Below, piece by piece: positions 21,545 to 49,409 of a DNA stretch of 64,000 nt. A program made the position numbers and the translations under genes. Each line of letters opens with the position of its first letter. The stretch's first letter is position 1. The stretch is from the IMG/VR virus record IMGVR_UViG_3300044984_003074; one strand, written 5' to 3'. Source of the DNA: a virus (Duplodnaviria; Heunggongvirae; Uroviricota; Caudoviricetes). The notes beneath the pieces were generated by a model, which saw only the letters and a list, made by a program, of their open reading frames with translations, ran no database searches and had not been told where the DNA came from.

Positions 21545-21622
21545 TAAAAACTATTTTTAATATAAATACCTTTTCTGTTTGGAATCTACATATTTATTTC
21601 TATCTTTGTAGTGTTAAAATAA

Positions 21623-22018
21623 GGGGATGAAATGGAATTGACTGGCATTACTACTTATTTGGGGCACGTAGTCAAACATCATCTATGACTTAAATCTGTG
21701 ATGGTAAAATTCAATTGGCAATACTTTTGCTAAGCTTTCTGCTTTAGGTTTGACTAGAGAAGAAGCTGTTGTTACTGCATAGTTCAGGGAACAACAAGGG
21801 GTCGGTTAGAACATTCAACCTAGCAACAGAAGTTCAGTATACGGGTGACAGGTTAGAGCTCGTTTAAAATAACTCTAAGACCAAGTTGTTTGCAGGTAGG
21901 TTTCTCACATACATCAGACCTGATATTTTGGAACATTGAGAACTAATGTTATCCTAAACGTGTAGTCCTGAACAATTAGGGTGAACAACACTCGGCTTCG
22001 AAGCCGACATCTCCACCA
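21623..22018 (+). ncRNA. ssrA: tmRNA-like (ssrA) gene with encoded CCA
   Basis: 5' GGGGAUGAAAUGGAAUUGACUGG resembles tmRNA 5' consensus; 3' ...UCGGCUUCGAAGCCGACAUCUCCACCA gives T-arm plus 7-bp acceptor pairing with 5' end incl. G3:U70 (Ala identity); ~396 nt; strong terminator follows. Confidence 0.55.
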
Positions 22019-24389: not shown

Positions 24390-25628
24390 ATGGGAAAAGA
24401 ATCAAAATTAGTCAATGAAATTTTATCATTGTATAAAACCATTTTAGAAAACAAAGAATTGGTTGAAGCTTCTGATGTATATGATAATGTAGATTTTAAA
24501 GATAATGTTGTTGGGAAAAGTACTCCTTCAAAAGATAATATTAACACCGCACTTTTACAAGATATACAAACAGCAGCAAAATCTGCAGGACTTAAAGTAG
24601 ATATTACAACTGCGGTTAGTGGTCATGATACAGGAACAAGACACGAATCGGGTAATGCTGTGGACATTGCAATGATTAATGGTAGGGCGGTAAGTACTTC
24701 TAACAGAGCCGACGCCGATAAGTTAGTTGGGGTATTAGTTCAAATGGGATACAAAAAAAATGTTGAGTCTGGTAACGAAAAAGCGGTTTTAACTTTTGGA
24801 TTTCCAGGACATAACAATCATGTACATGTTTCAAATAAAGGTGGTGCATCATCAGTAACACCATCAGGAGATACCGCATCAGATACAGCATATAAAGCGG
24901 CAACCAAACCTGAAGGAGTTAGTCAAGCAACATTTTCGGCATTTAATAACCCTAATGCGGCAACAGACACTCTTTTACTTGACCCTAGTTCACAAGTAAA
25001 ATCCCTAAAGAATTTAGCAAATGAAACTCGCCAAATTAAAGAAAATAAACATTTTGGTAACAACATATCAAATAGATATGGTAGATTAATTATCCCAAAA
25101 GATTCTAACCCAAAAATAAAAAGCCCAATTTCAGGTGAAATTATTAACAAATATTCACCAAGTTGTAAAAACCAAATTACAGTAAAAAGTAACGGTAAAA
25201 AAACAACTTACCTACAATTTTGTGGAATAAGTCACCCTTCTGTCAGAGTTGGACAATCAATATCAAATGGTGATATATTAGGTAAAACTGATACAGATGT
25301 TGAAGTAACAATGTATGATGATACTTGGAATACAATTAAAATTAGTGACAACTCAAACACTAAAGAATATGATGACGTTAAGAAAAAAGATAGAAATTCA
25401 GGACAGTCATTTTCTGACCCATTAACCGCTATGATGGCATCTGTACCTGGAAAAATTTTTAATAAAGTACTTGGAGACAAATACGATAAAAATGGTAATA
25501 GAACTCAAAAAAGGTGGGGCGGTGTTGCAGATAAAGAACCTGTTGACCCTTGGCTTTTAGATTTAGTTAAAAGTCCTTTTAAAAAGAAAGTTACTGAAAA
25601 TATAAAAAGAATTAAAAAATTATTATAA
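24390..25628 (+). CDS. M15-family zinc peptidase domain protein (putative peptidoglycan L-Ala-D-Glu/DD-peptidase; virion lysin or endolysin)
   Basis: 412 aa; SGHDTGTRHESGNAVDIA (H-x6-D) and HNNHVHVS (HxH) zinc ligands. Confidence 0.45.
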   Translation: MGKESKLVNEILSLYKTILENKELVEASDVYDNVDFKDNVVGKSTPSKDNINTALLQDIQTAAKSAGLKVDITTAVSGHDTGTRHESGNAVDIAMINGRAVSTSNRADADKLVGVLVQMGYKKNVESGNEKAVLTFGFPGHNNHVHVSNKGGASSVTPSGDTASDTAYKAATKPEGVSQATFSAFNNPNAATDTLLLDPSSQVKSLKNLANETRQIKENKHFGNNISNRYGRLIIPKDSNPKIKSPISGEIINKYSPSCKNQITVKSNGKKTTYLQFCGISHPSVRVGQSISNGDILGKTDTDVEVTMYDDTWNTIKISDNSNTKEYDDVKKKDRNSGQSFSDPLTAMMASVPGKIFNKVLGDKYDKNGNRTQKRWGGVADKEPVDPWLLDLVKSPFKKKVTENIKRIKKLL

Positions 25629-25632
25629 TAAA

Positions 25633-25660
25633 AAAACCCATCAATTGATGGGTTTTTTCT
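25633..25660 (+). terminator. rho-independent terminator (CCCATCAATTGATGGG core) duplicate of the post-tmRNA hairpin
   Basis: identical 16-nt palindromic core plus T-run. Confidence 0.55.
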
Positions 25661-25677
25661 TTCCTAATAGAATGTAA

Positions 25678-25917
25678 TTATTTTTTTACTTCTACGGCTG
25701 GTGTTTCAGCTTTTACTGAGTCCACAATTACTGATGTAGAATCCACTTTTACTGAGTCTACAGTTACTGTAGTTGAGTCTGTTAAGTCAGAGTTAGTTTC
25801 ACTTGATTTTTTGTTTCCACAAGAGGATAACGATACGATTGCAACAATTGCAAATAATGCTACGATTTTTTTCATAATTTTTTTTGTTTTATTTATTATT
25901 AGATTATAAATATACAA
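25678..25917 (-). CDS. small lipoprotein with VDSVKV repeats
   Basis: 79 aa; signal peptide + SSCG lipobox. Confidence 0.4.
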   Translation of the reverse strand: MYIYNLIINKTKKIMKKIVALFAIVAIVSLSSCGNKKSSETNSDLTDSTTVTVDSVKVDSTSVIVDSVKAETPAVEVKK

Positions 25918-25959
25918 GAACTATACTGATATGTCAATTTTTCTTACATATTTTTTCTG

Positions 25960-26044
25960 CGGAAAATGAGAGACTCGAACTCTCGCATCATTTTATCGAT
26001 GTACGGTTTAGCAAACCGCTGCATTACCACTCTGCCAACCTTCC
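25960..26044 (-). tRNA. tRNA-Ser (anticodon GCU), type II
   Basis: GGAAGGTTGGCAGAGTGG...loop TTGCTAA, long variable arm, T-arm GAGAGTTCGAGTCTCTC. Confidence 0.7.
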
Positions 26045-26049
26045 TTATA

Positions 26050-26394
26050 TTATATTAGGTGTAGTAAGATATATGACAATTTATATCCTGTAAAAGCGCC
26101 CAATGCGGATGGTATTGGGAATACAATTAATTTACCTAAATCAGTTACGTATTTTGGTCTATTTACAATTTTACCCATAAAAAAGTAATATATTAAATAA
26201 CCCATTAAAACCGCAATATCTGTACGTGTTGCAATAAAAACTACTAAAGTGGCCCCTAAGAACCCAAAAGTAAAATTATCCCTTACACCTTCCCAAACTT
26301 CTTTAGTTGATGCACTTTTATATTCTTTTACAATCTTTTTGAATTGGGCTTTATGCCCCTTTTTCTTTTTTTCTATTATTTCTGTTGTTTCCAT
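26050..26394 (-). CDS. hypothetical membrane protein
   Basis: 114 aa, two TM segments. Confidence 0.3.
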   Translation of the reverse strand: METTEIIEKKKKGHKAQFKKIVKEYKSASTKEVWEGVRDNFTFGFLGATLVVFIATRTDIAVLMGYLIYYFFMGKIVNRPKYVTDLGKLIVFPIPSALGAFTGYKLSYILLHLI

Positions 26395-26395
26395 G

Positions 26396-26470
26396 TTGGA
26401 ATAGATGGACTCGAACCATCGACTTTCACCGTATCAGGATGACACTCTAACCAACTGAGTTATATTCCAT
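26396..26470 (-). tRNA. tRNA-Ile (anticodon GAU)
   Basis: D-arm CTCAGTTGGTTAGAG, loop CTGATAC, T-arm GATGGTTCGAGTCCATC. Confidence 0.65.
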
Positions 26471-26561
26471 TATTATTTTTACAAAGATAGTTAATTTATC
26501 CCATAAAAAAAATCCCCCTGACTTTTAATCAGAGGGATTTAGTATTTAAATCTCTTCTATA

Positions 26562-27140
26562 TTAAAAGTATGTTTGTTCAAAGTATAATACTTGGAACTT
26601 ATCTTTACTATCAATTAAACTCAATGCATTAATTAAGTCGTTATACTCAACTACGGCACCTTTTTGAATTTTTCTAAATTTAGTTAAAACATCAAATGTT
26701 GTAATATCATCAGAAAATACTGTTTGTGAATCTTTGTTATATGCTTTCATTAATGCCAATTCCATTTCATAAGCTCCATTAATAATTTCTTCCAAACTAT
26801 TGAAAGTATGACTAATTTTTGCTGATGGGATTTCAGGGATAATATTGAAATCGGTCATATATTGTTGTAAAATCTCAGAATGACCTAATTCATCTTTTGC
26901 CTCATTTTCAAAAAACGCTGCCGCTTTTTTGTAGTTCATATCCGCACACCAGTTAGTTGCCGCTCTGTAATAATAATGTGCAGTATATTCGTCTTTGATT
27001 CTATCAGTTAAGATTTTAATTGTCTTATCTGATAACGAGTATAATTTAGGTGACTTTGTTAAACCTGGTTTGTTTTCCGCCTCATTCAAGTGCATCACTT
27101 TAAATAATTGTTCCTTTGTTAATGTTAATTTCTTTTCCAT
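26562..27140 (-). CDS. ferritin-like protein (start at internal Met; ORF-track N-terminus is read-through of tRNA-His)
   Basis: EYTAHYYYRAA ... NEAKDELGHSEIL ... ferritin ExxH/di-iron motifs; 5' part of listed ORF 26562..27287 overlaps tRNA gene. Confidence 0.5.
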   Translation of the reverse strand: MEKKLTLTKEQLFKVMHLNEAENKPGLTKSPKLYSLSDKTIKILTDRIKDEYTAHYYYRAATNWCADMNYKKAAAFFENEAKDELGHSEILQQYMTDFNIIPEIPSAKISHTFNSLEEIINGAYEMELALMKAYNKDSQTVFSDDITTFDVLTKFRKIQKGAVVEYNDLINALSLIDSKDKFQVLYFEQTYF

Positions 27141-27176
27141 ACTAATAAATAGTCGGTATAGATGAAAAATATTAGG

Positions 27177-27249
27177 GTGACTAACGGGAATCGAACCCGT
27201 GACAACTTGGACCACAACCAAGCGCTCTACCAACTGAGCTATAGCCACC
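27177..27249 (-). tRNA. tRNA-His (anticodon GUG)
   Basis: GGTGGCTATAGCTCAGTTGGTAGAGC, loop TTGTGGT, discriminator C. Confidence 0.75.
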
Positions 27250-27254
27250 ATATG

Positions 27255-27324
27255 TTGCGTGTTTGGGTTTCGAACCCAATTGACCATCCTTATGAGAGAT
27301 AGTTCTTTTCCTCTAAGTCACGCA
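27255..27324 (-). tRNA. tRNA with CAU anticodon (Met/fMet/Ile2), short atypical D-arm
   Basis: acceptor TGCGTGA/ACACGCA, AC stem TATCT/GGATG loop CTCATAA, T-arm TTGGGTTCGAAACCCAA. Confidence 0.45.
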
Positions 27325-27330
27325 GTTTAG

Positions 27331-27403
27331 AGGTTCTATTAGGATTCGAACCTAAACTCCGAATTCCGTAGATTCGTGTGCTAATCCGTTACACCATAAA
27401 ACC
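27331..27403 (-). tRNA. tRNA-Arg (anticodon ACG)
   Basis: AC stem CGAAT/ATTCG loop CTACGGA; T-arm TTAGGTTCGAATCCTAA. Confidence 0.7.
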
Positions 27404-27485
27404 CTAATTACCGATTATTGTCCCATTTAACAATTATCATCAAAACAATCCACAAAATTAAAAACCACATACTTTATTTATTTAG

Positions 27486-27556
27486 TTACCCGACCAAGAC
27501 TCGAACTTGGAACGACTGTACCAAAAACAGTTGTGTTACCATTACACCATCGGGCA
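27486..27556 (-). tRNA. tRNA-Gln (anticodon UUG)
   Basis: AC stem ACTGT/ACAGT loop TTTTGGT; T-arm CCAAGTTCGAGTCTTGG. Confidence 0.7.
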
Positions 27557-27562
27557 ATACTG

Positions 27563-27636
27563 TGGACCATCCAGGACTCGAACCTGGGACCTTCTCGTTA
27601 TGAGCGAGCTACTCTAACCGACTGAGTTAAAGGTCC
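27563..27636 (-). tRNA. tRNA-Met (anticodon CAU)
   Basis: D-arm CTCAGTCGGTTAGAG, loop CTCATAA, T-arm CCAGGTTCGAGTCCTGG. Confidence 0.65.
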
Positions 27637-27786
27637 AAAATTGACTACTACCTGACTCCTTTCGAACTTTGCAGGCTCGTATCATTCAATAATAGTAGTC
27701 CAAGGCGTTACGCACCCATCTGATAACTTTACTTCTCTTGAGTCCGGATAAGCGCTTACCAACTCAGGGGTTGTTTCCTTGTTTGT

Positions 27787-27866
27787 GGGAGTGGAGGGAT
27801 TCGAACCCCCAATGTCGTAGACCACAGATTTACAGTCTGCTAAGCGACCAATTGCTCAACACTCCC
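27787..27866 (-). tRNA. tRNA-Tyr (anticodon GUA), long variable arm
   Basis: GGGAGTGTTGAGCAATTGG..., loop CTGTAAA, T-arm TGGGGGTTCGAATCCCTCC. Confidence 0.7.
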
Positions 27867-28168
27867 AATTATAAAACAGACAATGAGGATTCTCCGATAT
27901 TTCAGTCTTAGGGGACTAGACGGGCATCATACCCGTGTTTACCCTCGGCGGTCTCTTGGTTTGGTTGATTACTCCGAACCTCACCCCTACACTACCACTG
28001 ACGTAAGTTATAGGTCTGTCTTAATTCTTTTAGGAAAACAGAAGATGGTTGCGTGGACATCTGTTTTTACGATTAGCGTTACTTAGGTGAATACCTCCCA
28101 ACTCCGATTGTACTAGCCGGCATTCACTCTCGAACTATTAGTACAATCATTCCCCAATCAACCTTTTG
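27867..28168 (-). ncRNA. GC-rich structured non-tRNA segment inside tRNA array (stable RNA or intron-like)
   Basis: ~300 nt at ~50% GC vs ~33% genome; multiple hairpins (CGGGCATCATACCCG; GTGAAT/ATTCAC); no convincing ORF (listed 67-aa ORF rejected). Confidence 0.35.
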
Positions 28169-28249
28169 CACGCTTGGAGGGATTCGAACCCCCACCAACG
28201 GTGTTGGAGACCGTGATGCTACCGTTGCACTACAAACGTATTTATTTAC
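28169..28249 (-). tRNA. tRNA-Trp (anticodon CCA)
   Basis: AC stem ACGGT/ACCGT loop CTCCAAC; T-arm GGGGGTTCGAATCCCTC. Confidence 0.7.
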
Positions 28250-28253
28250 TGCT

Positions 28254-28297
28254 CAAATTTAAGAGTATTTACTGCTCAAATTTAAGATTTTTGAGGT
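28254..28297. repeat. 2x tandem direct repeat of 21-23 bp (ATTTACTGCTCAAATTTAAGA) between tRNA-Trp and tRNA-Cys
   Basis: copies at 28254-28274 and 28277-28297. Confidence 0.8.
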
Positions 28298-28303
28298 CGG
28301 TAC

Positions 28304-28376
28304 AGGATTTGAACCTGTGTGAATAGTTTTGCAGACTACCGCCTAAGCCACTCGGCCAACCGACCCTATCTAATTT
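28304..28376 (-). tRNA. tRNA-Cys (anticodon GCA)
   Basis: GGTCGGTTGGCCGAGTGGCTTAGGC, loop CTGCAAA, T-arm ACAGGTTCAAATCCTGT. Confidence 0.7.
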
Positions 28377-28746
28377 AAAGAACTTCAGTTAGTATTCTCC
28401 ATTCTTTTAATGTGTTTCCTTCAAAGGTAACCTCAACCGGTTTCCCTTTTAATTTATCCACAGAGTCAACCTTAGCTTCCTTCAGTAAAGTCGAAACATA
28501 TCTCATAATCTCAGAATACCATCCATCCCTATCTTCTTCAGACCATTGGGTGTGTTCCGTCCATTTTATTTGTTCTGAATCCCAATTGGCTCTTGAATCA
28601 CCAACACCCCAACTTCCACCACTTAATGTGACGTGAAGACCTAACATTGCTCCTTGATATCCACCAAGACCAAAACTTACCGACTCAATTTTCCCTAATT
28701 TCTTTTCCATATTCTTTAATTTTAATATCCTTAAGGGCTTCCTCAA
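28375..28746 (-). CDS. hypothetical protein
   Basis: 123 aa ORF (start may be internal Met at ~28710). Confidence 0.3.
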   Translation of the reverse strand: MRKPLRILKLKNMEKKLGKIESVSFGLGGYQGAMLGLHVTLSGGSWGVGDSRANWDSEQIKWTEHTQWSEEDRDGWYSEIMRYVSTLLKEAKVDSVDKLKGKPVEVTFEGNTLKEWRILTEVL

Positions 28747-28845
28747 TTTGTTTTCCTAACCATTCTTTCCACTCGTCAAAGGTAAACTTTGAATTTGGAT
28801 TCTCCAAGAGAAAGTTTTTATATTGTGTTTCTAATGTTGCCATAA

Positions 28846-29445
28846 TTAATCTAAACTATTTGGGTAATATAATAATGTTGGGTTCTTCTTTTGGATATCA
28901 ATTTCAGGATATCTATCACTAAATGATTTGACATCAAATCGAGATGTAATTAAATGTCTACCATTTTTGGTAGGTATTACTTTTTCAACCTTAAATCCAA
29001 TTGGTCTAAGGTCTTTAATAAAATCGGCGACTTCATATAAAAAATCAGGGTCAGTAGTATCAATATCAACAATCCATCTTTTTTCTTTAGTCTTTATTTG
29101 ACCAACAACTGAATCAAATAACCCTTTTTGGTTTTGAACCCCATTCTTAATTCTTTCCGCCAAATTTGACAACATATCCAAAGAAACATCTTTATGATTT
29201 TGTTTTTGAATATGAATATAAGCTCTTGCTTTAAACATTTCACAAAGTTGTTTTACCTCATCGTACCTTCTTTCCAAATGGTCAATTGAATCAATACAAT
29301 ATGTTTTAATTGTTCTAACCGATTGATGATTATCTCTTTCATTTTCAGGTTGGTCTTTCTTACGTTTAAACACATACAACATATAGAAATCACCCTTTTC
29401 TTCAAAGTTTAACAACGGTTTTATTATCTCTAAATTATCTATCAT
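28846..29445 (-). CDS. hypothetical protein
   Basis: 199 aa ORF. Confidence 0.3.
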   Translation of the reverse strand: MIDNLEIIKPLLNFEEKGDFYMLYVFKRKKDQPENERDNHQSVRTIKTYCIDSIDHLERRYDEVKQLCEMFKARAYIHIQKQNHKDVSLDMLSNLAERIKNGVQNQKGLFDSVVGQIKTKEKRWIVDIDTTDPDFLYEVADFIKDLRPIGFKVEKVIPTKNGRHLITSRFDVKSFSDRYPEIDIQKKNPTLLYYPNSLD

Positions 29446-29998
29446 ATCTTTTTATTTTTTTATACTGTAAATTTGAAATAATTAGTTCCATCAAAATCAA
29501 ATTCCGCAATTACATCATTAGTTCCCCAAACAAACCTAATATAAGAACTAATGTTGGAATAAAGATTACCTGAATTTCCAGGAAATTGGATTATAATTTT
29601 TCTCAATTTTCCAACAACAATGTTATTAATTCCAGGTTCCCCATAAATGTTTTTAACTTCAGTGGTAATTCTAACCCCACTATAATAAATTGGGTTTTGA
29701 TGTTTTAATATTTTTCGGAAATAATCAATCTCTTTCATTTTAATATCCTATTTCTTTTTTAACTTCCCATTGTTTATCGATAGGAATTCTTTCAATTCTT
29801 TCAACAGGTACAAACCCGTCAAACCCTTTATCTTTAACATCCTCAAAATGTTCTATGGTATCCAATTGGAACCCGAACTTATATCGGATGTATTGGAACT
29901 TTTCTCCGTCCCAATATGCCATGTGGTTGTTCCTACAAAATCCATTGTACCAACCTTCAACCATTTCATTTTTTGGTATCATAATTTCTATTTTTTTG

Positions 29999-30072
29999 TG
30001 ACCCCTCCGAGACTCGAACTCGGGACTCCTTCATTAAAAGTGAAGTGCTCTAGCCAACTGAGCTAAGAGGTC
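29999..30072 (-). tRNA. tRNA-Lys (anticodon UUU)
   Basis: GACCTCTTAGCTCAGTTGGCTAGAGC, loop CTTTTAA, T-arm CCGAGTTCGAGTCTCGG. Confidence 0.75.
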
Positions 30073-30476
30073 TTTTTTTCGTTCAATCATTTCTGACTGT
30101 CCCCAATACCGAATTTCAGCGGCAACCCACTTACGTGAGGGGTTAGAACTTGTGTGTTAACTTACTCCTGTTAATGGTACACTAACCAACCGACTTAGAC
30201 TCAAGTAATCGGCTCAGGTCCCCATGGTTGTAAAACCACTTCTCATCGTTCGGGAGCAAACTAGTCGTATACTACTCGACTCGTGTAGTCGACACGGGAC
30301 TCGAACCCGCACAAGGCAACCTTACAACTCCATAGTCAACACAAGTGTCTGTGACTATTGGTCTTGGGGGTTTGGGACCTTCCCTCATTACACAGTCGAC
30401 TAACAACCCCACTTCACCAGGTTAATGGACTGGCTGCCATATGGGAGTGGGGGTTTCCCGTTAATTCGGGACTCCG
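30073..30476 (-). ncRNA. ~400-nt GC-rich structured segment including a 118-nt tRNA-like minihelix (8-bp acceptor around a GTCGAC palindrome + canonical T-arm, no canonical anticodon arm)
   Basis: minihelix approx 30286-30403: 5' TAGTCGAC ... GCGGGTTCGAGTCCCGT GTCGACTA 3'; remaining sequence forms many hairpins; no ORF support. Confidence 0.35.
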
Positions 30477-30549
30477 TGGTAACGGTCAGAATCGAACTGA
30501 CGACACCTTGTTCTTCAAACAAGTGCTCTACCGACTGAGCTACGTTACC
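30477..30549 (-). tRNA. tRNA-Phe (anticodon GAA)
   Basis: GGTAACGTAGCTCAGTCGGTAGAGC, loop TTGAAGA, T-arm GTCAGTTCGATTCTGAC. Confidence 0.75.
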
Positions 30550-30697
30550 AAATAAAGATAATGATGGAGTACCCGTCTCGCTCCAATCTTAACTGCTTTC
30601 CTGAGTTTTATGAGGCCTCGGCAGAAAGGGTGATGAACTATTGCTCCATTCGGAATTGTCGACATTCCATTGAATGGTTAGAACCATTATCTTAGTA

Positions 30698-30770
30698 GTT
30701 CCTGTAGGATTCGAACCTACGACTGCTTGCATGTAAGGCAAGAACTCTTCCACTGAGCTAAGGAACTGTA
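30698..30770 (-). tRNA. tRNA-Val (anticodon UAC)
   Basis: GTTCCTTAGCTCAGTGGAAGAGT, loop CTTACAT, T-arm GTAGGTTCGAATCCTAC. Confidence 0.7.
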
Positions 30771-30774
30771 TTGT

Positions 30775-30846
30775 AGCCCTGCCGGGAGTCGAACCCGACT
30801 TTCCAGGATGAAAACCTGGCGACCTAACCGATAGTCGACAGGGCCA
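30775..30846 (-). tRNA. tRNA-Glu (anticodon UUC)
   Basis: AC stem CCAGG/CCTGG loop TTTTCAT; T-arm TCGGGTTCGACTCCCGG. Confidence 0.65.
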
Positions 30847-30908
30847 TAAATAAATCTTTTACAAAGATACAATCAATATTTCAAAGAGCAAAAGATTATA
30901 GAATAAAA

Positions 30909-30940
30909 AAACCCCGAACCTTAATTAAAAGTTCGGGGTC
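30909..30940 (-). terminator. hairpin CCCCGAAC...GTTCGGGG with T-run on minus strand
   Basis: perfect 8-bp stem; T8 run on minus strand. Confidence 0.5.
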
Positions 30941-31130
30941 TGATATGATATAAATTTATATTATTATCCTACGATTACATCCGAACTACATAGCAGCATA
31001 CGCTCATACCAACAAACTATTTGTTGTTTACTAAAGACCATATGTTGTATTGTAGTTTTCATTGTTTCTATAATTATATCAAAGATAGTCAAAATCTTCA
31101 ATTTGTCAAATATTATTTTTTTTTGTACCC

Positions 31131-31203
31131 CAAGAGAGACTCGAACTCTCAAAATCTTGTATCTAAAACAAGCGTGTCTGCCATTCCACCATCGGGGCAT
31201 ATA
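31131..31203 (-). tRNA. tRNA with UAG anticodon (Leu-reading) but short type-I variable arm
   Basis: AC stem CTTGT/ACAAG loop TTTAGAT; T-arm GAGAGTTCGAGTCTCTC; D-stem weak. Confidence 0.45.
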
Positions 31204-31297
31204 TCACATCGTACAGGCATTCTGGTTCTCGCCAACAGAAATTCCATCTTACTTAGCCCACCCTGTGCGATAGGGGTACCTGAGGATATGATAATTG

Positions 31298-31371
31298 TGA
31301 TTCGGATAGGATTCGAACCTATGACCCCAAATTTAGAAGATTTGTGCTCTATCCAGCTGAGCTACCGAACC
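31298..31371 (-). tRNA. tRNA-Arg (anticodon UCU)
   Basis: GGTTCGGTAGCTCAGCTGGATAGAGC, loop CTTCTAA, T-arm ATAGGTTCGAATCCTAT. Confidence 0.75.
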
Positions 31372-31589
31372 ATTTTCCACCAATGAGATTATTTTGGTGT
31401 AGATATCTACAGTTTTCCTATTCAAAACCCATCGCGTCTTACCGCTTAAAAGTCAACCATATACTCGGAGGTCAAGATGGTTCTCTTGCCGTTTTTCCGA
31501 CGACTCCCTCTGTAAAACCGTTTGGAGTACCAGCTACATCATTGTTTAAGTAACGATGCCAAATCTATTGAGTATCTCTATCTCAATCG

Positions 31590-31669
31590 TAGTCAGGACA
31601 GGACTCGAACCTGTAATTCCGGTTAAACCCCTCAACGGGGCCGCGTCTATCCAATTCCGCCACCCGACT
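31590..31669 (-). tRNA. type-II (Leu/Ser-like) tRNA, anticodon arm non-canonical (reads UGA by alignment)
   Basis: D-arm TGGCGGAATTGGATAGACGC (Leu-like), T-arm ACAGGTTCGAGTCCTGT; anticodon region GCCCCGTTGAGGGG forms 5-nt loop. Confidence 0.45.
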
Positions 31670-31808
31670 ATTTTAAAATTCAATTGTGGACTTCCATTTC
31701 CACTCCGATAACTGTTGTCAATGTGATTTGTGCTATTGTACTTCTAGCTTAGACACATCGGGACGCACCATAAACATATGTCAGGGTCTTGTCTTTAATT
31801 GAATTTAG

Positions 31809-31908
31809 TAGTCAGGACAGGACTCGAACCTGTGAGGATATTTAAACTTCAGCAATGATAAAGTACCTTAAAGCGTCTACCAATTCCGCCACCTAACTAT
31901 TTTGAGGT
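31809..31908 (-). tRNA. paralogous type-II tRNA-like gene, 100 nt, aberrant/extended anticodon region (possible pseudo-tRNA or small intron)
   Basis: same acceptor/D/T arms as 31590-31669 but ~20 nt longer; no canonical 7-nt loop. Confidence 0.35.
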
Positions 31909-32253
31909 TGAGAACTCCTCGTGTTGTGCAAATATAGACATAAATCTTTTCAAAATTTATAATCTCACCCGACTATTTCATTCCTATCTCACAGGAACAA
32001 CACATTTTACTTCCACTGAGTTTTTCGGTTATACTTCCAAGTTTTATGTTCTCTGTATTTGTGAGAAAATTGTCCTTTTCTGTAATGAACACCCTCATCC
32101 CAATAAGAAGGGTATTCAAACTTTAACCAAATCAATCTGTAATCTTTTGAACAAGTTGCCTTCTTCAATTTCATTCTGTTTGTATTCACACTCATAATCT
32201 TGAGTCTGTTGTTTAGCAGACCTCAAAGATTATCAAATACCTTTTTCATAATT

Positions 32254-32334
32254 TTAAATTTTGTATCGAGAGAGGGAGTCGAACCCTCACGCCTTATGGC
32301 AAGGAGTCTTAAGCCCCTCGTGTCTACCATTTCA
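32254..32334 (-). tRNA. tRNA-Leu (anticodon UAA), type II
   Basis: AC stem AGGGG/CTCCT loop CTTAAGA, long variable arm, T-arm GAGGGTTCGACTCCCTC. Confidence 0.7.
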
Positions 32335-32534
32335 CCACCTCGATATTTCTTCTACAAAGATAGTAAAATCTTTGATATAACCATAAAAAAACCCCAAACT
32401 TTTCAGTTCAGGGTTAAGTCTCTATAAATAGAATGGCTCTGAACAAATTACCGCATAAGTCTTCTTAACAGACCTTGTCTATTAAGTAATAATGTATGTA
32501 ATAATATTGTTCTCATTGTTTTTATAAATATATC

Positions 32535-33251
32535 TTATTCTGTAAAACTTTCTTCATATAAAGTATTACTATCGTTTGATTCAATATTGTCAGTATGGTC
32601 TAATGTAACAATTTTATTATTAAAGTCAAATATAAATTGACCATCAGACCCTTCATTGTTTTCCCAACCACCAAAATTTGTTGAAAGTTGAGTGTAACAC
32701 CAATCTTCAATTCCCGCAGGTACCGCACTACCATTTTGGTCAAATCTATCTTCCAAATATCCTGAATCTCCAGACCCATTATATGTTACGGTTAAAATAC
32801 CATCATTTGGTATTTCAACATCGGAAAACTCGTTTCCTTCCCATCGTTTAAATTTTTCAATGTCTTCATCAGAATCGAACTCAATCGAACTTCCATCACC
32901 TCTTTCATAAAAAGACCACCATTTACTAAACACGATTTTTTTATCTTTTACATCAATATCAAACTCAACTCTTTGGTAATTAATCATATCCATATCAAGG
33001 TGCTCAAAATTGTTTTGATTATCAACATAGTTAACAATCTTTTGAAGTATTGGAATTAATCCTGATGGGATATCCGCTCTATAATTGTTTGAAAAATGGG
33101 TTATTTCATCCCAATCAATATCGTTGGGGTCAAATACTGAATAACTATCAATATCAAACTCAATATTACCATCATACATCCCTAATGAATTAAGATAATT
33201 GGTAACTCTTCGTAAATATTTTTTTTCTTCTGGTGTTAAAATTCCTTTCAT
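32535..33251 (-). CDS. hypothetical protein
   Basis: 238 aa ORF. Confidence 0.3.
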   Translation of the reverse strand: MKGILTPEEKKYLRRVTNYLNSLGMYDGNIEFDIDSYSVFDPNDIDWDEITHFSNNYRADIPSGLIPILQKIVNYVDNQNNFEHLDMDMINYQRVEFDIDVKDKKIVFSKWWSFYERGDGSSIEFDSDEDIEKFKRWEGNEFSDVEIPNDGILTVTYNGSGDSGYLEDRFDQNGSAVPAGIEDWCYTQLSTNFGGWENNEGSDGQFIFDFNNKIVTLDHTDNIESNDSNTLYEESFTE

Positions 33252-33267
33252 AAACTATAAATATCCT

Positions 33268-33615
33268 TTAATCATCTATTTTTAATGTTCTTAACATCCA
33301 TTGTGGTCGTTTATTCTCGGAAAGGTTATTAACCCACTCTTTGGCCGATGGGATATAGTTATTACAGTCTTCTTTTACATGTTGTTCACCAACATATCTT
33401 GTGTAAACTATTTTACCATCACTATTGGTGAATTCCGTACCAAATCTTTTTTCCATTTCAAAAATCCCTTCACTATGATGTCTAAACATTCTGTGGAGTG
33501 AGTCACCAAACCAAGATTTGGTTTCATCTAACCATTCGTGTAAATGGATATAATCTTCAGGTTTTCCACCAAATTTCTTAGCGGATGATTTTGCATGTAA
33601 ATTTGGATGTGCCAT
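33268..33615 (-). CDS. hypothetical protein
   Basis: 115 aa ORF. Confidence 0.3.
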   Translation of the reverse strand: MAHPNLHAKSSAKKFGGKPEDYIHLHEWLDETKSWFGDSLHRMFRHHSEGIFEMEKRFGTEFTNSDGKIVYTRYVGEQHVKEDCNNYIPSAKEWVNNLSENKRPQWMLRTLKIDD

Positions 33616-33628
33616 AGTTTTATTTTTG

Positions 33629-33703
33629 TGGAGCTAGTGAGAATCGAACTCACCTCAGAGACATTGCAAGTGTTTCTCGCCAAGCCTTGGAACATGTAAC
33701 CCC
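33629..33703 (-). tRNA. tRNA-Ala (anticodon UGC)
   Basis: acceptor GGGGTTA/TAGCTCC with G3:U70, loop CTTGCAA, T-arm GTGAGTTCGATTCTCAC. Confidence 0.55.
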
Positions 33704-33710
33704 TTATTTG

Positions 33711-33783
33711 AGCCTCCTGTCGGAATCGAACCAACGACATCAACATTACAAATGTTGCGCTCTACCTGCTGAGCTAAGGAGGC
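33711..33783 (-). tRNA. tRNA-Thr (anticodon UGU)
   Basis: GCCTCCTTAGCTCAGCAGGTAGAGC, loop TTTGTAA, T-arm GTTGGTTCGATTCCGAC. Confidence 0.75.
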
Positions 33784-33842
33784 GTTTGTGGGTATATGCT
33801 CATCACATATTCTTGGGTTCCCACACACCCCTTGAGCAGATA

Positions 33843-33914
33843 GACGGAATCGAACCGTCGTCTCCAGATTGGAAGTCTGGAGTAATAACCCCTATACGAT
33901 ATCTGCATTTGGCG
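33843..33914 (-). tRNA. tRNA-Gly (anticodon UCC)
   Basis: AC stem CCAGA/TCTGG loop CTTCCAA; T-arm GACGGTTCGATTCCGTC. Confidence 0.7.
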
Positions 33915-33917
33915 GTC

Positions 33918-33993
33918 CCGACGGGATTCGAACCCGTACCTCACACCGTGACAGGGTGGAATTGTAACCATTCAACCACGGGACCAAAATTTC
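33918..33993 (-). tRNA. tRNA-Asp (anticodon GUC), CCA encoded
   Basis: GGTCCCGTGGTTGAATGG, loop CTGTCAC, T-arm TACGGGTTCGAATCCCGT, 3' GCCA. Confidence 0.7.
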
Positions 33994-34107
33994 AATTCAA
34001 AGGTGACAATCCTATAACAATTGAATGAGAAAGAACCGTGTTTCTCGGGTAGTGACTTCCCGTATTCTGTCTTTCTGTTTTTTATGGGGAGTCTCAACCC
34101 AATCTTT

Positions 34108-34596
34108 TTAGTTAACTAATATGTCCTTATGTTCTTCGATTACTCGTTTTAAACTACTGACATATCTTTTGTCTTGTGCGTATATTTTACCAAGTAACGC
34201 AAGGTACTCTTTTTTTGTCAAATCATTCTTGTTTTTTAACATATAATTCTGCCATAAGGAGTAATCATACACACTAAACACCCAATCTTCATAACTTGAA
34301 TACCCACTTTTGGTTTGACCGTTTGCGGATGACTCTCGTTTTTTTGGTATTCTCATACCAAATAGATTGTTCGCTGATTTGAACAATTTGGAAGTAAATT
34401 GACCTGATTCTAATACCGCTTGTGCGAATACCACATCAGGAAATTTAATTCCGTGATTAATTATCTGCTCATACAAATTTTGTCTTGTGATACTATTTTC
34501 AATAGTTGTTTCACTTTGTAATTGCTTCTCTTGTGCTTTGATTGTTAATGTTCCTAACAATAACAATCCAGTCAATAAGAATGTTTTTAACTTCAT
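34108..34596 (-). CDS. secreted GH73-family N-acetylglucosaminidase (FlgJ-like) peptidoglycan hydrolase
   Basis: 162 aa; N-terminal signal peptide; VFAQAVLESGQFTSKLFKSANNLFGM GH73 motif. Confidence 0.6.
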   Translation of the reverse strand: MKLKTFLLTGLLLLGTLTIKAQEKQLQSETTIENSITRQNLYEQIINHGIKFPDVVFAQAVLESGQFTSKLFKSANNLFGMRIPKKRESSANGQTKSGYSSYEDWVFSVYDYSLWQNYMLKNKNDLTKKEYLALLGKIYAQDKRYVSSLKRVIEEHKDILVN

Positions 34597-34667
34597 TTCT
34601 TTCTTTTTGTCTGTTTATGCTTCAGGATTACTCCATCCACGATACCACAACATTGGAAATTTTCCAC

Positions 34668-35228
34668 CTACCCCACTTGTAATAATTCAACTAAACCGTC
34701 GTGTATTTCAGAATGACAATTAGAACATACTAATATACATTTGTCTACCTCGTCTTTTAGTTTTTCAAAACTAACACTTTTTCCTGAAATTGAAAAGTCT
34801 TTTTCTTCAGGATTGAGATGATGAAATTGTAAAGCTCTGTTACATTTTTTATATCCACATAATTCACATTCACCACCCTTATAGTCAATTAATTTTTGTT
34901 TTGTTCGTTTTCTCCATTCAATAACTGCTTCAGTTTTTGAAACTGTTTTATTTTTATTTGTTGTTACAACATATTTTAAAACAGTGTTAATTGCATGTCC
35001 TTTTAATTTTGCAATTTTTTTAACAGAACCAATTTCATCATAAAGTTTTTGTAATTCTAATTTTTGTTCATCTGTCAATCTATCACTATGACCACCCATT
35101 TTATTGAGTTTACAGTGATATGATACTGTTGAAATTGCACAATGTAATTCTTTACAAATTTCTTTATAGGTTTTACCCTGATTTCTTAATTCTATTATTT
35201 TTTCGAAGTATTTACTCATTATTAACAT
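34668..35228 (-). mobile_element. HNH homing endonuclease with N-terminal HTH domains
   Basis: 186 aa; C-terminal HHLNPEEKDF...CILVCSNCHSEIH HNH motif. Confidence 0.6.
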
Positions 35229-35269
35229 TATTAGTTAATAATAACTATCACAAATATTCGAAAAGTAAA

Positions 35270-35354
35270 GCTGACACGGTAGGATTCGAACCTACGTCGG
35301 ATTTTACTCACCAGATTAACAGTCTGGACCATTCGACCTCTATGGCAACATGTC
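35270..35354 (-). tRNA. tRNA-Asn-like (anticodon GUU) with unusually long variable region
   Basis: AC stem CCAGA/TCTGG loop CTGTTAA; T-arm GTAGGTTCGAATCCTAC; 15-nt variable. Confidence 0.5.
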
Positions 35355-35360
35355 AATAAT

Positions 35361-35433
35361 GTCGGGGTGGCAGAAATCGAATCTGCTCGATGTCCTGGTC
35401 CCAAACCAGGCGACTAACCTTTAGTCCACACCC
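35361..35433 (-). tRNA. tRNA-Pro (anticodon UGG)
   Basis: CGGGGTGTGGACTAAAGGTTAGTC, loop TTTGGGA, T-arm GCAGATTCGATTTCTGC. Confidence 0.75.
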
Positions 35434-35448
35434 CGTAATAAATAAAAA

Positions 35449-35475
35449 AAACCCTGAAGGATTAGTTCAGGGTTT
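35449..35475 (-). terminator. hairpin CCCTGAA...TTCAGGG with T8 run on minus strand, upstream of tRNA array
   Basis: 7-bp stem plus T-run. Confidence 0.5.
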
Positions 35476-36152
35476 TAAATTTTTGGCTAATATAATATTA
35501 CTCAAAAATTATGTCTGAACTCATACGAATAGTGCCCGCATCCCCATTAGGAGTTGTCGGTGTGTCAAGATTTGTATTTGTGTTCATCGTTTTCATAGTA
35601 CAATATTACAATAAATATATCAAAAATCCAATAATTATAAATATTTTTTAAAAATATTTTGAATTACCTGTTCATCCTCAGAACTTAAAGAGTAATATTT
35701 CTCTTTAAGTTTATCTAAATTTTCATTAAAATCAGTTTCATATCTTCCCAAATTTTCATTTGGATTTGTTCCAATTACGTTTTTAGGAAGATAACCATCC
35801 TCAACTAAACACTCTATTAATTCTTGTATTTCTCTTTTACTACAAGAAGATACAAATTCGTCAACATCTACATCAACATAAGATTCAAATTCTGGCATAA
35901 TAATTTGTTTTAATTTTTTACAAAAGTAATTAAATAATTTGACTTCCCAAACTTTTTTCAGATATTTATTAGTATGATAATAGACAAAATATAAGGTGTC
36001 TTTTGGGAACTAACCTATCATATGAGAACTTAGATGTTTTGGGGTTTGGAAAATTTCAATTCATAAAAAAATACTAATTATTAGTTTTATAAAAGGGTCA
36101 ATATTGACCCTTTTTTTGTTTTTATATTTTAAATCACTTATGTTTGTAAAAA

Positions 36153-48326: not shown

Positions 48327-49409
48327 ATGACCGTAGATATAAACATATTAAACGATTACATAGAAAGAGGGTTGGTGGTTAAAAATGACCACCCAACCCT
48401 TCCTATTTCAATATACAATTATTCTCGTACTTGTCAGTATGAGAATAACTGGGATAGTGTTACTAAAATTTGCCGAGGGCTTATCTTGGATAATGAAGGT
48501 AATGTTGTTGCAAAATCATTTAATAAGTTTTTCAACTACGAAGAATTAACCTTTAAAGACATCCCCGAAGAAACTTTTGAAGTATATGAAAAATTAGATG
48601 GTTCTTTAGGTATTTTATTTTGGTTTAGAGGAAATTGGATTTTGGCAAGTAAAGGTTCGTTTATTTCTGACCAATCAATTAGAGGGACTAAGATATTAAA
48701 TGAAAAATACAATGTTGAAGTTTTACCAAAAGGTTATACTACCGTTGTAGAGATTATTTACCCTGAAAATCGTATTGTTTGTGATTATGGTGATGATGAA
48801 GAATTGGTTGTATTATGTATGATAAGTAATGTCTCAGGTAAAGAATTAGATTATACTTCAATGTTATCCATCAATGAAGTAAGTGGTTTACCAACCGTTA
48901 AAAAATACGATGATGTAACCGATTACGACATACTTAAATCTCAAATAACTCAAAACCGCGAAGGTTATGTTATTCGTTTTAGAAACGGATTTCGTATGAA
49001 AATAAAAGGGGAAGAATATGTTCGTTTACATAGAATCTTAACTGGATTCTCAAATGTTGACATATGGGAATATCTAAAAGATGGTAAAGATGTCTCTGAA
49101 CTATTAGATAAAGTCCCTGATGAATTTGATAAATGGGTTAAAAATACCATTAGAGATTTAAGATATGGGTTTTTTCAAATATCTGAAAGAGCTGGTAAAC
49201 TTCACGATGGATTCCGTTATGGAAAATATGGTGATGTGGACCCTGAACCAACAAAAAAAGAATTTGCGGAGTTTGTATTAAAACAACAAGAAGTATTACG
49301 ACCAATAATGTTTGCCATGTGGGATAAAAAACCATATGATGAGATTATTTGGAAATTGATTAAACCACAATATAGTAAACCGTTTTGGCAAAAAGAAATT
49401 GAACCATGA
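48327..49409 (+). CDS. ATP-dependent RNA ligase, T4 Rnl1-like
   Basis: 360 aa; motif I YEKLDGSL (KxDGSL), VVEIIYPEN, EGYVIRFRNGFRMKIKGEEY (motif IV/V KxK). Confidence 0.6.
   Translation: MTVDINILNDYIERGLVVKNDHPTLPISIYNYSRTCQYENNWDSVTKICRGLILDNEGNVVAKSFNKFFNYEELTFKDIPEETFEVYEKLDGSLGILFWFRGNWILASKGSFISDQSIRGTKILNEKYNVEVLPKGYTTVVEIIYPENRIVCDYGDDEELVVLCMISNVSGKELDYTSMLSINEVSGLPTVKKYDDVTDYDILKSQITQNREGYVIRFRNGFRMKIKGEEYVRLHRILTGFSNVDIWEYLKDGKDVSELLDKVPDEFDKWVKNTIRDLRYGFFQISERAGKLHDGFRYGKYGDVDPEPTKKEFAEFVLKQQEVLRPIMFAMWDKKPYDEIIWKLIKPQYSKPFWQKEIEP

Follow-up and report, generated by a model that had tools for sequence, protein, structure and literature searches.

Structured, covarying RNA modules interspersed among the tRNA genes of a Caudoviricetes phage

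We examined the tRNA array of a Caudoviricetes phage (IMG/VR virus record IMGVR_UViG_3300044984_003074) and the structured RNA segments that lie between its tRNA genes. The window, meaning the whole stretch of DNA analyzed, is 64,000 nucleotides (nt) long. ARAGORN called 22 tRNAs on its minus strand between positions 25959 and 35435, and all structural analysis was therefore done on that strand. The tRNAs average 51% GC and the window 32.4%. The window also encodes a portal and a large terminase of the T4 type, an ATPase resembling ClpB, and an RNA ligase of the T4 Rnl1 type, and the genome is probably that of a T4-like phage with a host in the Bacteroidota. Outside the tRNAs, no GenBank phage resembled the region.

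A 199-amino-acid (aa) open reading frame (ORF) within the array (28846-29445) was used to retrieve 80 related IMG/VR loci (65-97% aa identity), and pattern scans added ~270 further loci. The spacers were split into modules using blastn and iterated nhmmer against these related loci, which are given below as L numbers where one must be named. A sequence-only reading of the window had singled out seven inter-tRNA spacers within 27638-32253 as GC-rich, hairpin-dense segments. What that reading missed is that the spacer modules are discrete units of 50-215 nt with sharp boundaries on the minus (tRNA) strand. Spacer 27638-27785 consists of M6a and M6b, 27867-28168 of M4 and M5, and 30073-30476 of M1, M8, and M9, while 30550-30697 corresponds to M2, 31372-31589 to M3, and 31670-31808 to M11. 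These units and the related elements of the array are as follows.

27249-27329, minus strand: 81-nt tRNA-like minihelix between tRNA-His and tRNA-Arg, outside the 27638-32253 range
27643-27700, minus strand: M6b, a 58-nt hairpin RNA with a GACUACUA/UAGUAGUC closing stem around a core containing GUUCGAA
27701-27785, minus strand: M6a, an 85-nt module starting 0 nt past tRNA-Tyr
27872-28023, minus strand: M5, a ~150-nt multi-hairpin module with a terminal stem of 10 base pairs (bp) of the ACAGAC/GUCUGU type
28031-28165, minus strand: M4, a ~130-nt RNA (72 homologues, 36 distinct sequences)
30073-30284, minus strand: M9, a ~210-nt GC-rich multi-hairpin module ending 2-4 nt before the next tRNA
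30285-30402, minus strand: M8, a 118-nt tRNA-like RNA with an 8-bp acceptor stem and a canonical T-arm
30407-30475, minus strand: M1, a ~70-nt H-type double pseudoknot (111 homologues, 48 distinct sequences)
30555-30693, minus strand: M2, a ~135-nt RNA (152 homologues, 89 distinct sequences)
31202-31293 (within 31199-31296), minus strand: M10, a ~92-nt module with a UAUCAUAUC/GAUGUGAUA closing stem, located between tRNA-Arg(UCU) and tRNA-Leu(UAG)
31374-31588, minus strand: M3, a ~205-nt ornate RNA (74 homologues, 48 distinct sequences)
31590-31669, minus strand: T2, an 80-nt member of a tRNA-Leu scaffold family (Rfam tRNA match of 35.6 bits; called "tRNA-Gln(UUG)" by ARAGORN)
31676-31806, minus strand: M11, a ~130-nt segment of uncertain status, closed by a 10-bp AAAUUCAAUU/AAUUGAAUUU stem
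31809-31898, minus strand: T1, a 90-nt member of the same scaffold family (Rfam tRNA match of 37.5 bits; missed by ARAGORN)
33784-33833, minus strand: M13, an H-type pseudoknot of ~48 nt that encloses a hairpin (loop UGAUGAG); it lies outside the 27638-32253 range, between tRNA-Gly and tRNA-Thr

A typical module starts 0-3 nt past the upstream tRNA and ends 2-7 nt ahead of the downstream one, and these gaps (0-7 nt) equal the lengths of the tRNA-tRNA linkers. One module may lie between different tRNA pairs in different relatives, and presence or absence also varies among close relatives. Given the tRNA-like linkers and changing positions, the modules act as genes on a par with the tRNA genes in the layout of the array. 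They are single-copy per genome and confined to tRNA operons, and their internal non-helical positions are highly conserved. Far from lacking conservation in homologous phages, an outcome that would have spoken against the sequence-only reading, discrete units are conserved and covary in up to 152 IMG/VR loci.

Covariation was judged against slid pairing partners, a control that preserves the relatedness of the sequences and is a fairer test than shuffles. Compensatory covariation was found in ten modules; it was strong in M1, M2, and M4, with some in M3 and six more. M6b, M8, M9, M10, and M13 each have 4-7 compensatory pairs, M6a has three, and the shallow alignment of M5 has two. The signal is well beyond chance. 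In M1 and M4, G.U pairs are confined to the minus strand and so assign the RNA to the strand of the tRNAs. Gap lengths in M1-M4 are mostly not multiples of three, and codon periodicity was not found in M2 (p = 0.99) or M3 (p = 0.18).

The modules did not correspond to known RNA families. An Rfam scan, which the sequence-only reading had proposed as a check, was run with Rfam 15 over the whole window at gathering thresholds and over 25500-36000 and 30270-31910 at E ≤ 10, and no family matched any module; weak matches (Pseudomon-1, trpB, Plastid-ycf2, and others) were a terminator or antisense tRNAs. Known ribozymes, riboswitches, introns, RNase P, 6S, GOLLD, ROOL, and YrlA are excluded as far as covariance models see. 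Among cultured phages, blastn of the 5-kb region, M1, and M2 against INPHARED gave tRNA matches only.

The closing stem of M2 (GAUAAUGGU/AUCAUUAUC) covaries and is followed by a 5' hairpin, a central palindrome, and a 3' hairpin (UGGAG-CGAGAYGGGUA-CUCCA) with an invariant 11-nt loop; the sequence UAAAACU is also invariant. The 27 pairs of M2 were 96.6% paired, against 26-55% for slid partners, and 17 were compensatory, against 3-6. M2 occurs in >119 IMG/VR contigs, and a pattern search of 185,579 GTDB species genomes found it in three tiny contigs of metagenome-assembled genomes only. It lies between tRNA-Glu and tRNA-Val, Val and Phe, or Tyr and Phe, most often just upstream of tRNA-Phe; it is missing from L028, L029, and L046 and takes other slots in L026 and L020.

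Two elements of M2 are self-complementary. In 79 of the 89 distinct sequences, the 5' hairpin has GUCGACA (GUCGAC) as its 7-nt loop, and structural variants carry GUGCAC, UGGCCA/GGCC, or GCGC, so that the loop is always self-complementary. The central element is a perfect 8-nt palindrome, usually extended to 10 nt by a flanking C and G, that exists in ten versions (GAGGCCUC, UGGGCCCA, GAUGCAUC, GGUGCACC, UGUGCACA, AGUGCACU, GAGCGCUC, AAGGCCUU, UAGGCCUA, and AACGCGUU) as well as in versions with G.U wobbles. Its two innermost pairs covary (G-C, U-A, C-G) and would enclose 0 or 2 nt. Because such pairs are impossible within one molecule, the simplest reading is an intermolecular duplex, and the sequences point to M2 working, very probably, as a homodimer or larger assembly by way of these two elements. 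A pseudoknot between ACCC and GGGU was also considered for M2 and dropped; it has no covariation support because all of its positions are invariant. Variants with a rebuilt 5' domain (loop GCGC, GGCC, or GUGCAC) were seen in L184, L194, L202, L179, and L155, in L189, and in L230, and several of these variants directly follow a scaffold RNA and precede tRNA-Phe.

M1 starts one nucleotide, an invariant C, past the discriminator base of tRNA-Phe. Its stem P1 is GGAGU/ACUCC and switches to GAGGU/ACCUC; its stem S2 is CCCCAC/GUGGGG and switches to CCUUAC/GUGAGG. The hairpin loop of P4 (UCCRUUAAS) is conserved and can pair with AUGG, which is invariant in the junction before it. The minimal 58-nt form, which follows tRNA-Asn, lacks the optional hairpin P1a. 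The 20 pairs were 91.6% paired (32-60% when slid), and seven of them, the pseudoknot stem included, were compensatory (0-2 when slid). Some 37 of ~72 positions are invariant, many of them unpaired. The module is 98.6% identical between phages whose adjacent 199-aa protein is 72-74% identical, a comparison of sequences that points to purifying selection on M1 and to conservation exceeding that of the neighboring protein. The M1 pattern was present in 79 IMG/VR contigs and absent from the 185,579 GTDB species genomes. In 101 of the 111 copies (91%), M1 lies ≤12 nt downstream of a tRNA, mainly Phe or Asn, and the tie to a downstream tRNA is looser (68/111).

M13 has the topology of M1. It has 45 homologues, 40 of which lie ≤12 nt downstream of a tRNA; seven of its 12 pairs are compensatory, and the pseudoknot pairing, GGUGGA/UCCACC against GUGGG/CCCAC, can be read directly from the sequences. 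Two ribozyme assignments were considered and rejected. Manual threading of M1 and M13 onto a hepatitis delta virus (HDV)-like fold yielded no P3/L3 and no J4/2 cytosine: in M1 types A and B the 5' strand of P2 abuts the 3' strand of P1 and J4/2 reads UGAA or GGAA, and minimal type B has only 9 nt between the P2 and P1 strands, leaving no room for P3/L3. A hammerhead reading of the M13 motif UGAUGAG fails since the motif sits in a hairpin loop rather than a junction.

M3 is tied together by a loop-loop contact in which GAGAU in the loop of the 5' hairpin pairs with AUCUC in the loop of the 3' hairpin, with several internal hairpins, one bearing a GUAAGA loop. RNAalifold chose the loop-loop helix, which shows GC-to-AU and UA-to-CG changes, and the other helices show three pair types. 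A de novo helix finder run on the MAFFT alignment recovered the loop-loop helix only, so that the full structure of M3 needs a structure-aware alignment. M3 lies between many tRNA pairs (Leu/Arg, Thr/Leu, Gly/Gly, and others). In M4, the 5' and 3' parts are conserved (GGUUGAUUGGGGAAUG ... GUAAYGCCAAUCRUAAAAG, then a hairpin with loop UGUCCACNNAACCAUCU), and the central domain is replaceable. The inverted repeat UUGUACUA/UAGUACAA that had been noticed within 28088-28165 is present, and all eight of its pairs covary. Altogether, the 26 pairs of M4 were 98.6% paired, against 38-63% for slid partners, and 12 were compensatory, against 2-4. M4 usually lies upstream of tRNA-Tyr and occurs as tandem copies in L020, L022, L024, L028, L029, L037, and L046.

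The alignments of the other modules hold fewer sequences. M6b, whose closing inverted repeat had likewise been pointed out and forms a hairpin at 27643-27700, has 43 homologues (20 distinct sequences) and compensatory changes in seven of 17 consensus pairs. M6a is weakly supported (19 homologues, seven distinct sequences; 3/13 pairs compensatory). The nine homologues of M5 are 88-100% identical, and its 46 consensus pairs are 98% paired with only two compensatory. For M9, 12 homologues (10 distinct sequences) gave 50 consensus pairs that are 99% paired, seven of them compensatory. M10, which lies inside the range of the sequence-only reading and was not listed there, has 23 homologues (15 distinct sequences), with 4/10 pairs compensatory. 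M11 has a fold z-score of -1.55, a GC content of 36%, and one homologue, 98.6% identical, on one other contig; as the sole homologue is near-identical, the claim for spacer 31670-31808 gains no comparative support.

A further group of elements is tRNA-like. The 118-nt minihelix described earlier in spacer 30073-30476 is M8, in which an 8-bp stem (UAGUCGAC/GUCGACUA) stacks on a T-arm of 5 bp whose loop has 7 nt. Its D/anticodon region is elaborated and has no anticodon loop, and relatives add a variable-arm hairpin. The acceptor covaries across 13 distinct homologues (AGUCGAC, AGUCAAG, or GUCAGG), and seven of 19 pairs are compensatory; homologues of M8, like those of M9, differ by indels of 13-22 nt. 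The 8/5 acceptor/T geometry led us to consider a tRNA-Sec, a reading we rejected given 84 nt between acceptor and T-arm and no match by ARAGORN or Rfam. The element at 27249-27329 combines a 6-bp terminal stem (GCGUG/CACGC) with a T-arm-like hairpin, UUGGGUUCGAAACCCAA, and has 37 homologues (12 distinct sequences).

Segments of this kind had been called not foldable as tRNAs, which holds for the modules, none of which has an Rfam or ARAGORN match, but the region also contains two aberrant tRNA-like genes. Only T1 and T2 reach the gathering threshold (29 bits) of the Rfam tRNA model RF00005, and M1-M11 had no tRNA match at E ≤ 10. In T1, 22 nt replace the central anticodon arm (the central 9 nt). 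The anticodon arm of T2 has a 6-bp stem and a 5-nt loop instead of a 7-nt loop (alternatively, a 7-nt loop with G33), and its close relatives carry the "anticodon" UUG or UCG on an identical body. Judged by what a functional decoder requires (5-bp stem, 7-nt loop, U33, and a consistent anticodon), neither T1 nor T2 qualifies.

Searching with the shared T-arm/acceptor sequence, in which the last 22 nt of the 3' part served as the pattern, uncovered a very large family, spread over at least 120 IMG/VR contigs and reaching six members in a single locus. Its 200 distinct RNAs measure 54-191 nt (median 102) and share a near-invariant 5' part, AGUCAGGUGGCGGAAUUGGUAGACGC, as well as a 3' part that reads ACAGGUUCGAAUCCUGUCCUGACUA. 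The inserts that separate the D-arm from the T-arm differ from one RNA to the next: 189 inserts fall into 154 unrelated clusters, 133 of them singletons. ARAGORN called 39 of the 200 RNAs, assigning 28 different "anticodons" to one tRNA-Leu body. Positions 5-26 of the scaffold, the D-arm region, are identical at 22 of 22 positions to annotated E. coli tRNA-Leu genes, and every member has an A following the acceptor stem (discriminator A73), so that the scaffold carries the tRNA-Leu-type D-arm and A73 of the LeuRS identity set. LeuRS ignores the anticodon arm.

Some insert subfamilies covary (a 99-103-nt group), and over 75 nt T2 has 100% identity to its counterpart in L002, next to an M3 with 83% identity. 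Taken together, the covarying subfamilies and the better conservation of the T2 insert than of M3 imply that the inserts are not simply drifting. A closing helix on every insert was not found (16%, against 17% in shuffles), and antisense targets sought within the window for the T1, T2, and M8 inserts showed complementarity no better than shuffles. In L048 (18970-19467, plus strand), three scaffold RNAs of 141, 108, and 106 nt stand in tandem in a 20-kb locus with no canonical tRNA, and a fourth of 123 nt lies elsewhere in the locus; their inserts are 50-79 nt long.

The general description of the spacers given by the sequence-only reading needed some revision. Their GC content, said to be ~45-50%, is 43.2% for 27638-27785, 43.0% for 27867-28168, 48.3% for 30073-30476, 40.5% for 30550-30697, 39.9% for 31372-31589, 36.0% for 31670-31808, and 32.5% for 31909-32253. 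The figure is thus right for one spacer; five of the seven are moderately enriched (39.9-48.3%), and the last two are not, 24% of background windows being as high as 31670-31808 and 31909-32253 being equal to background. The hairpin density was not evident for whole spacers (minimum free energy [MFE] z-scores of 0.0 to -1.55), but z-scores improve when true module boundaries are used (M8, -2.33; M6b, -2.75; the 27249-27329 element, -3.21). Whole-spacer z-scores are uninformative because each spacer contains several modules, and thermodynamics alone would not have validated the finding. The supposed lack of credible ORFs fails for 31909-32253, most of which is filled by a conserved gene.

32007-32195, minus strand: conserved gene for a 62-aa basic small protein, from ORF conservation and codon-position bias

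Of 11 distinct relatives, 10 preserve an intact reading frame here, the lowest of them at 80% nucleotide identity; in the most divergent one (79%) it is frame-shifted. Third codon positions took most of the substitutions (142, against 51 and 41). On the whole, the original observation is largely real and partly confirmed.

Motif and terminator scans, with one element read by eye, identified the following candidate transcription signals in the array.

30862-30891, minus strand: Bacteroidota-type promoter (TTG...TAnnTTTG), from the motif scan, ahead of the block from tRNA-Glu through M2/M1/M8/M9
31080-31109, minus strand: Bacteroidota-type promoter, from the motif scan
~32360: Bacteroidota-type promoter just upstream of tRNA-Leu, read by eye
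30909-30941, minus strand: intrinsic terminator just upstream of the 30862-30891 promoter (14-bp stem with 6 G-C pairs, 5-nt loop, T-run)
32390-32415 and 26510-26540, minus strand: terminators bounding transcription units, from the terminator scan

The motif scan gave nine matches where 2.6 were expected. Neither scan placed a promoter or terminator inside the modules themselves, and those found bracket long units of tRNAs, modules, and ORFs. A short unit at 30909-31109 (minus strand) has its own promoter (31080-31109) and strong terminator (30909-30941) and is conserved in 26 loci; a 32-33-aa ORF in it (MKTTIQHMVF...SSDVIVG) is kept in frame across a 3-nt indel, and the unit may specify a small protein or a small RNA. 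Among the array tRNAs, only tRNA-Asp encodes its CCA.

From this anatomy, we infer that the modules are co-transcribed with the tRNAs in polycistronic units and released by the enzymes that excise tRNAs. RNase P cleavage at the downstream tRNA and RNase Z-type 3' processing of the upstream tRNA would free each module, and the flush spacing means that such enzymes would release them as discrete RNAs. The ends so created would be buried in a terminal helix (M2, M5, M6b, M8, M10, M11), a pseudoknot (M1, M13), or a loop-loop contact (M3), and with sequestered ends the released RNAs should be stable. They would then act in trans as stable small RNAs. That the modules are trans-acting stable small RNAs derived by tRNA-punctuated processing is the reading we hold to be likely.

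A more ambitious proposal, which we put forward tentatively and think rather doubtful as a whole, is that T1 and T2 represent a previously undescribed and widespread phage RNA system in which a near-invariant scaffold derived from tRNA-Leu (acceptor, Leu D-arm, T-arm, A73) presents hypervariable cargo where the anticodon and variable arms would be, often several cargos per phage. Thanks to the scaffold, the RNAs might be processed by RNase P/Z, receive CCA, remain stable, and perhaps be leucylated, with the fast-evolving cargo serving as a decoy, aptamer, or guide in phage-host conflict; in the same operons, M2 might self-assemble into a dimeric or cage-like form, and M1 and M13 might be a new class of ribozyme at tRNA 3' ends.

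Several observations weigh against our main reading. In relatives, M5 is not flush with tRNAs, so that tRNA-punctuated release cannot be the whole story, and the arguments for release and stability draw on anatomy and the T4 precedent only. Shuffle controls overstate significance because related sequences share ancestry. Whole-spacer MFE is no better than that of shuffles. M11 and T1's own insert have no comparative support. Within the scaffold family, the invariance of the 3'-terminal 22 nt arises partly by construction since they were the search pattern, and the inserts as a class fold only slightly better than shuffles (mean z-score of -0.65). The gain on dimerization of M2 calculated with RNAcofold is modest (-13 kcal/mol, against -9 ± 3 kcal/mol in shuffles).

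The modules could instead be cis-acting processing elements for neighboring tRNAs, with M1 and M13 possibly new self-cleaving ribozymes that make the tRNA 3' end and the others folding insulators or guides for RNase P/Z. The positions of M1 and M13 behind tRNAs, and the closer tie of M1 to the upstream than to the downstream tRNA as it travels with tRNA-Phe or tRNA-Asn, speak for this account; the compact double pseudoknot of M1, with its many invariant unpaired positions, is typical of catalytic or ligand-binding cores, and theta ribozymes offer a precedent in phages of Bacteroidota and Bacillota (PMC10879173). However, M1 does not fit the HDV fold, its J4/2 (UGAA/GGAA) lacks a catalytic C, and no HDV, hatchet, pistol, twister, or hammerhead model matched at E ≤ 10. 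The invariant C before M1 is common to most tRNA trailers of the array and not specific to M1, the large M3, M9, and M5 and the tandem M4 are hard to explain as processing aids, and M5 again does not adjoin tRNAs in relatives. We regard a cis role as unlikely while still giving it some weight, because M1 fails the defining HDV features and yet occupies precisely the right place.

Selfish or mobile DNA (miniature insertion elements, intron remnants, or homing-endonuclease cargo), with RNA structure that is incidental or serves mobility, would account for the presence/absence and positional changes between close relatives (as for M2 in L028, L029, L046, L026, and L020), for tandem M4, for the terminal inverted repeats that close many modules, and for the HNH/helix-turn-helix (HTH) gene inside the array, which recalls segB in T4. 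We consider this improbable: one-strand G.U covariation points to selection at the RNA level rather than on a DNA palindrome, there are no target-site duplications, flanking exon halves, or group I/II intron matches, and the modules are single-copy, restricted to tRNA operons, and highly conserved at internal non-helical positions. The suggestion of small introns made in the sequence-only reading fares no better, since the units lie between complete tRNAs, without exon context or an Rfam intron match. Its suggestion of degenerate tRNAs is right in that M8, T1, T2, and the 27249-27329 element are visibly tRNA-derived, but these are conserved and diversified, not decaying. Decaying tRNA pseudogenes or compositionally odd neutral spacer, consistent though they are with non-significant whole-spacer z-scores and with the restriction of M11 to one near-identical contig, are a very improbable explanation for conservation that exceeds that of neighboring protein genes, compensatory covariation in ten modules, and families spread over 79 to >120 IMG/VR contigs; near-invariant scaffold halves around differing inserts are the opposite of uniform decay. 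Least credible of all is that the segments encode small proteins. The 62-aa ORF does occupy one listed spacer and stop-free runs of 25-63 codons exist in the modules, yet the gap lengths of M1-M4, the lack of third-position bias in M2 and M3, and the 13-22-nt indels among M8/M9 homologues all argue otherwise, and covariation explains the pattern of conservation. Release as stable, trans-acting RNAs remains our preferred reading.

Other features of the window bear on its general biology.

48327-49409, plus strand: T4 Rnl1-type RNA ligase (PF09511, E = 5e-19)
34668-35228, minus strand: HTH and HNH endonuclease gene within the tRNA array
33626-33703, minus strand: divergent tRNA-Ala(UGC)
28240-28292, minus strand: spacer between tRNA-Cys and tRNA-Trp
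21623-22018, plus strand: tmRNA candidate
51245-52669, plus strand: thymidylate synthase of 474 aa

The presence of the RNA ligase in the same phage suggests tRNA-repair counter-defense. The endonuclease gene parallels segB within the T4 tRNA cluster, and the enzyme may drive shuffling of array units. The divergent tRNA-Ala(UGC) has G3:U70 and an aberrant D-arm (CCAAGGCUUGG); it was missed by ARAGORN, is matched in Rfam only by the tmRNA model (22 bits), and is homologous to genes called tRNA-Ala in L082 and L047. The tRNA-Cys/tRNA-Trp spacer is AT-rich (21% GC), is made up of a direct repeat of AAAUUUGAGCAGUAAAUA, and has nine homologues. The tmRNA candidate is a full-length match to the Rfam tmRNA model at 47.9 bits (gathering score 47), was not called by ARAGORN, and is preceded by a TTG...TATCTTTG promoter-like motif (21579-21608, plus strand). 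The thymidylate synthase matches its Pfam model in two stretches over residues 9-393, is ~200 aa longer than usual, and may carry an insertion.

The function of the T4 species 1 and 2 RNAs has been unknown for about fifty years, a puzzle that persists partly because there are only two such RNAs with few informative relatives. About a dozen families with deep covarying alignments are now available (M2 in >119 contigs, M1 in 79, the scaffold in at least 120), with boundaries and structure models precise enough for the RNAs to be synthesized and tested. Ideas open to experiment include dimerization of M2 through its covarying palindromes, self-cleavage or 3'-end processing by M1 and M13, and a natural tRNA scaffold with hypervariable cargo that may be leucylated. 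Because tRNA finders miss such genes (T1, the divergent tRNA-Ala) or mislabel them (T2 as tRNA-Gln), phage tRNA repertoires used to draw conclusions on host or codon usage are inflated or distorted.

That phage tRNA clusters can contain stable RNAs other than tRNAs, and that ornate RNAs lie beside phage tRNA islands, is already known. No description of these modules or of the scaffold family was found in the searchable literature, which leaves out most subscription journals; the most unusual elements are M2, with its covarying palindrome, and the tRNA-Leu scaffold that carries hypervariable inserts. The closest parallel in layout comes from T4, where rnaD (119 nt, species 2) starts 1 nt past tRNA-Arg and rnaC (139 nt, species 1) follows 6 nt later; in rnaC, a canonical T-arm is combined with a terminal stem resembling an acceptor and a long hairpin as variable arm. 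Both RNAs accumulate in infection, with functions still unknown (PMC9697503). The arrangement of the modules is exactly that of rnaD/rnaC, with non-tRNA RNAs on the tRNA strand, flush with tRNAs, and a homing endonuclease gene in the cluster, and M8 resembles rnaC in its T-arm and acceptor architecture. The comparison with T4 made in the sequence-only reading therefore stands at the level of architecture. Homology was not detected, as nhmmer searches of T4 68-76 kb with 11 module profiles gave no match at E ≤ 10. T4 has two such RNAs, whereas the window has about a dozen in at least 10 unrelated families that include pseudoknots and a putative dimer, and the host lineage differs.

GOLLD and ROOL RNAs are also encoded by phages, often next to a tRNA array or surrounding one (GOLLD sometimes has tRNAs within it), and form pseudoknotted homo-oligomers of unknown function (PMC12286853). 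The covarying self-complementary loop and palindrome of M2 suggest homo-oligomerization of a similar kind, here deduced from sequence only. The modules are, however, much smaller (50-215 nt, against ~580-800 nt) and matched neither family in Rfam at E ≤ 10. Theta ribozymes are minimal HDV-like ribozymes directly downstream of tRNAs in phages of Bacteroidota and Bacillota, with a proposed role in processing of the 3' trailer (PMC10879173). M1 and M13 are likewise compact double pseudoknots that start no more than a few nucleotides from the 3' end of a phage tRNA, but they lack P3/L3 and the catalytic cytosine of J4/2, differ in helix order, and have no HDV-family match.

Among tRNA-like RNAs that do not decode, YrlA is modified by tRNA enzymes, and that of M. 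smegmatis is cut by RNase P and receives CCA; the ends of YrlA lie in a Ro-binding stem at the "anticodon" position, and its acceptor is loop-closed (PMC4201824). T1, T2, and M8 similarly keep features of the acceptor, T-arm, and D-arm that tRNA enzymes recognize, with RNA ends that, unlike those of YrlA, lie in the acceptor stem. A TROVE/Ro gene was absent from the 30 ORFs scanned, a subset of those in the window. The scaffold RNAs resemble tmRNA in that the anticodon arm is replaced by other RNA and differ in having no G3:U70 and no tag ORF. The same replacement was reportedly engineered in the recombinant tRNA scaffold of Ponchon and Dardel. For hypervariable inserts on a constant tRNA-Leu body, no described counterpart was found in the searchable literature. 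There are trans-acting RNAs that RNase P, RNase Z, or RNase E cuts out of tRNA precursors, such as the E. coli 3'ETS-leuZ sponge and the TMERs of murine gammaherpesvirus 68. Those RNAs are short, largely unstructured sponges or pre-miRNA hairpins, whereas the modules of this phage are larger, pseudoknotted, and independently conserved.

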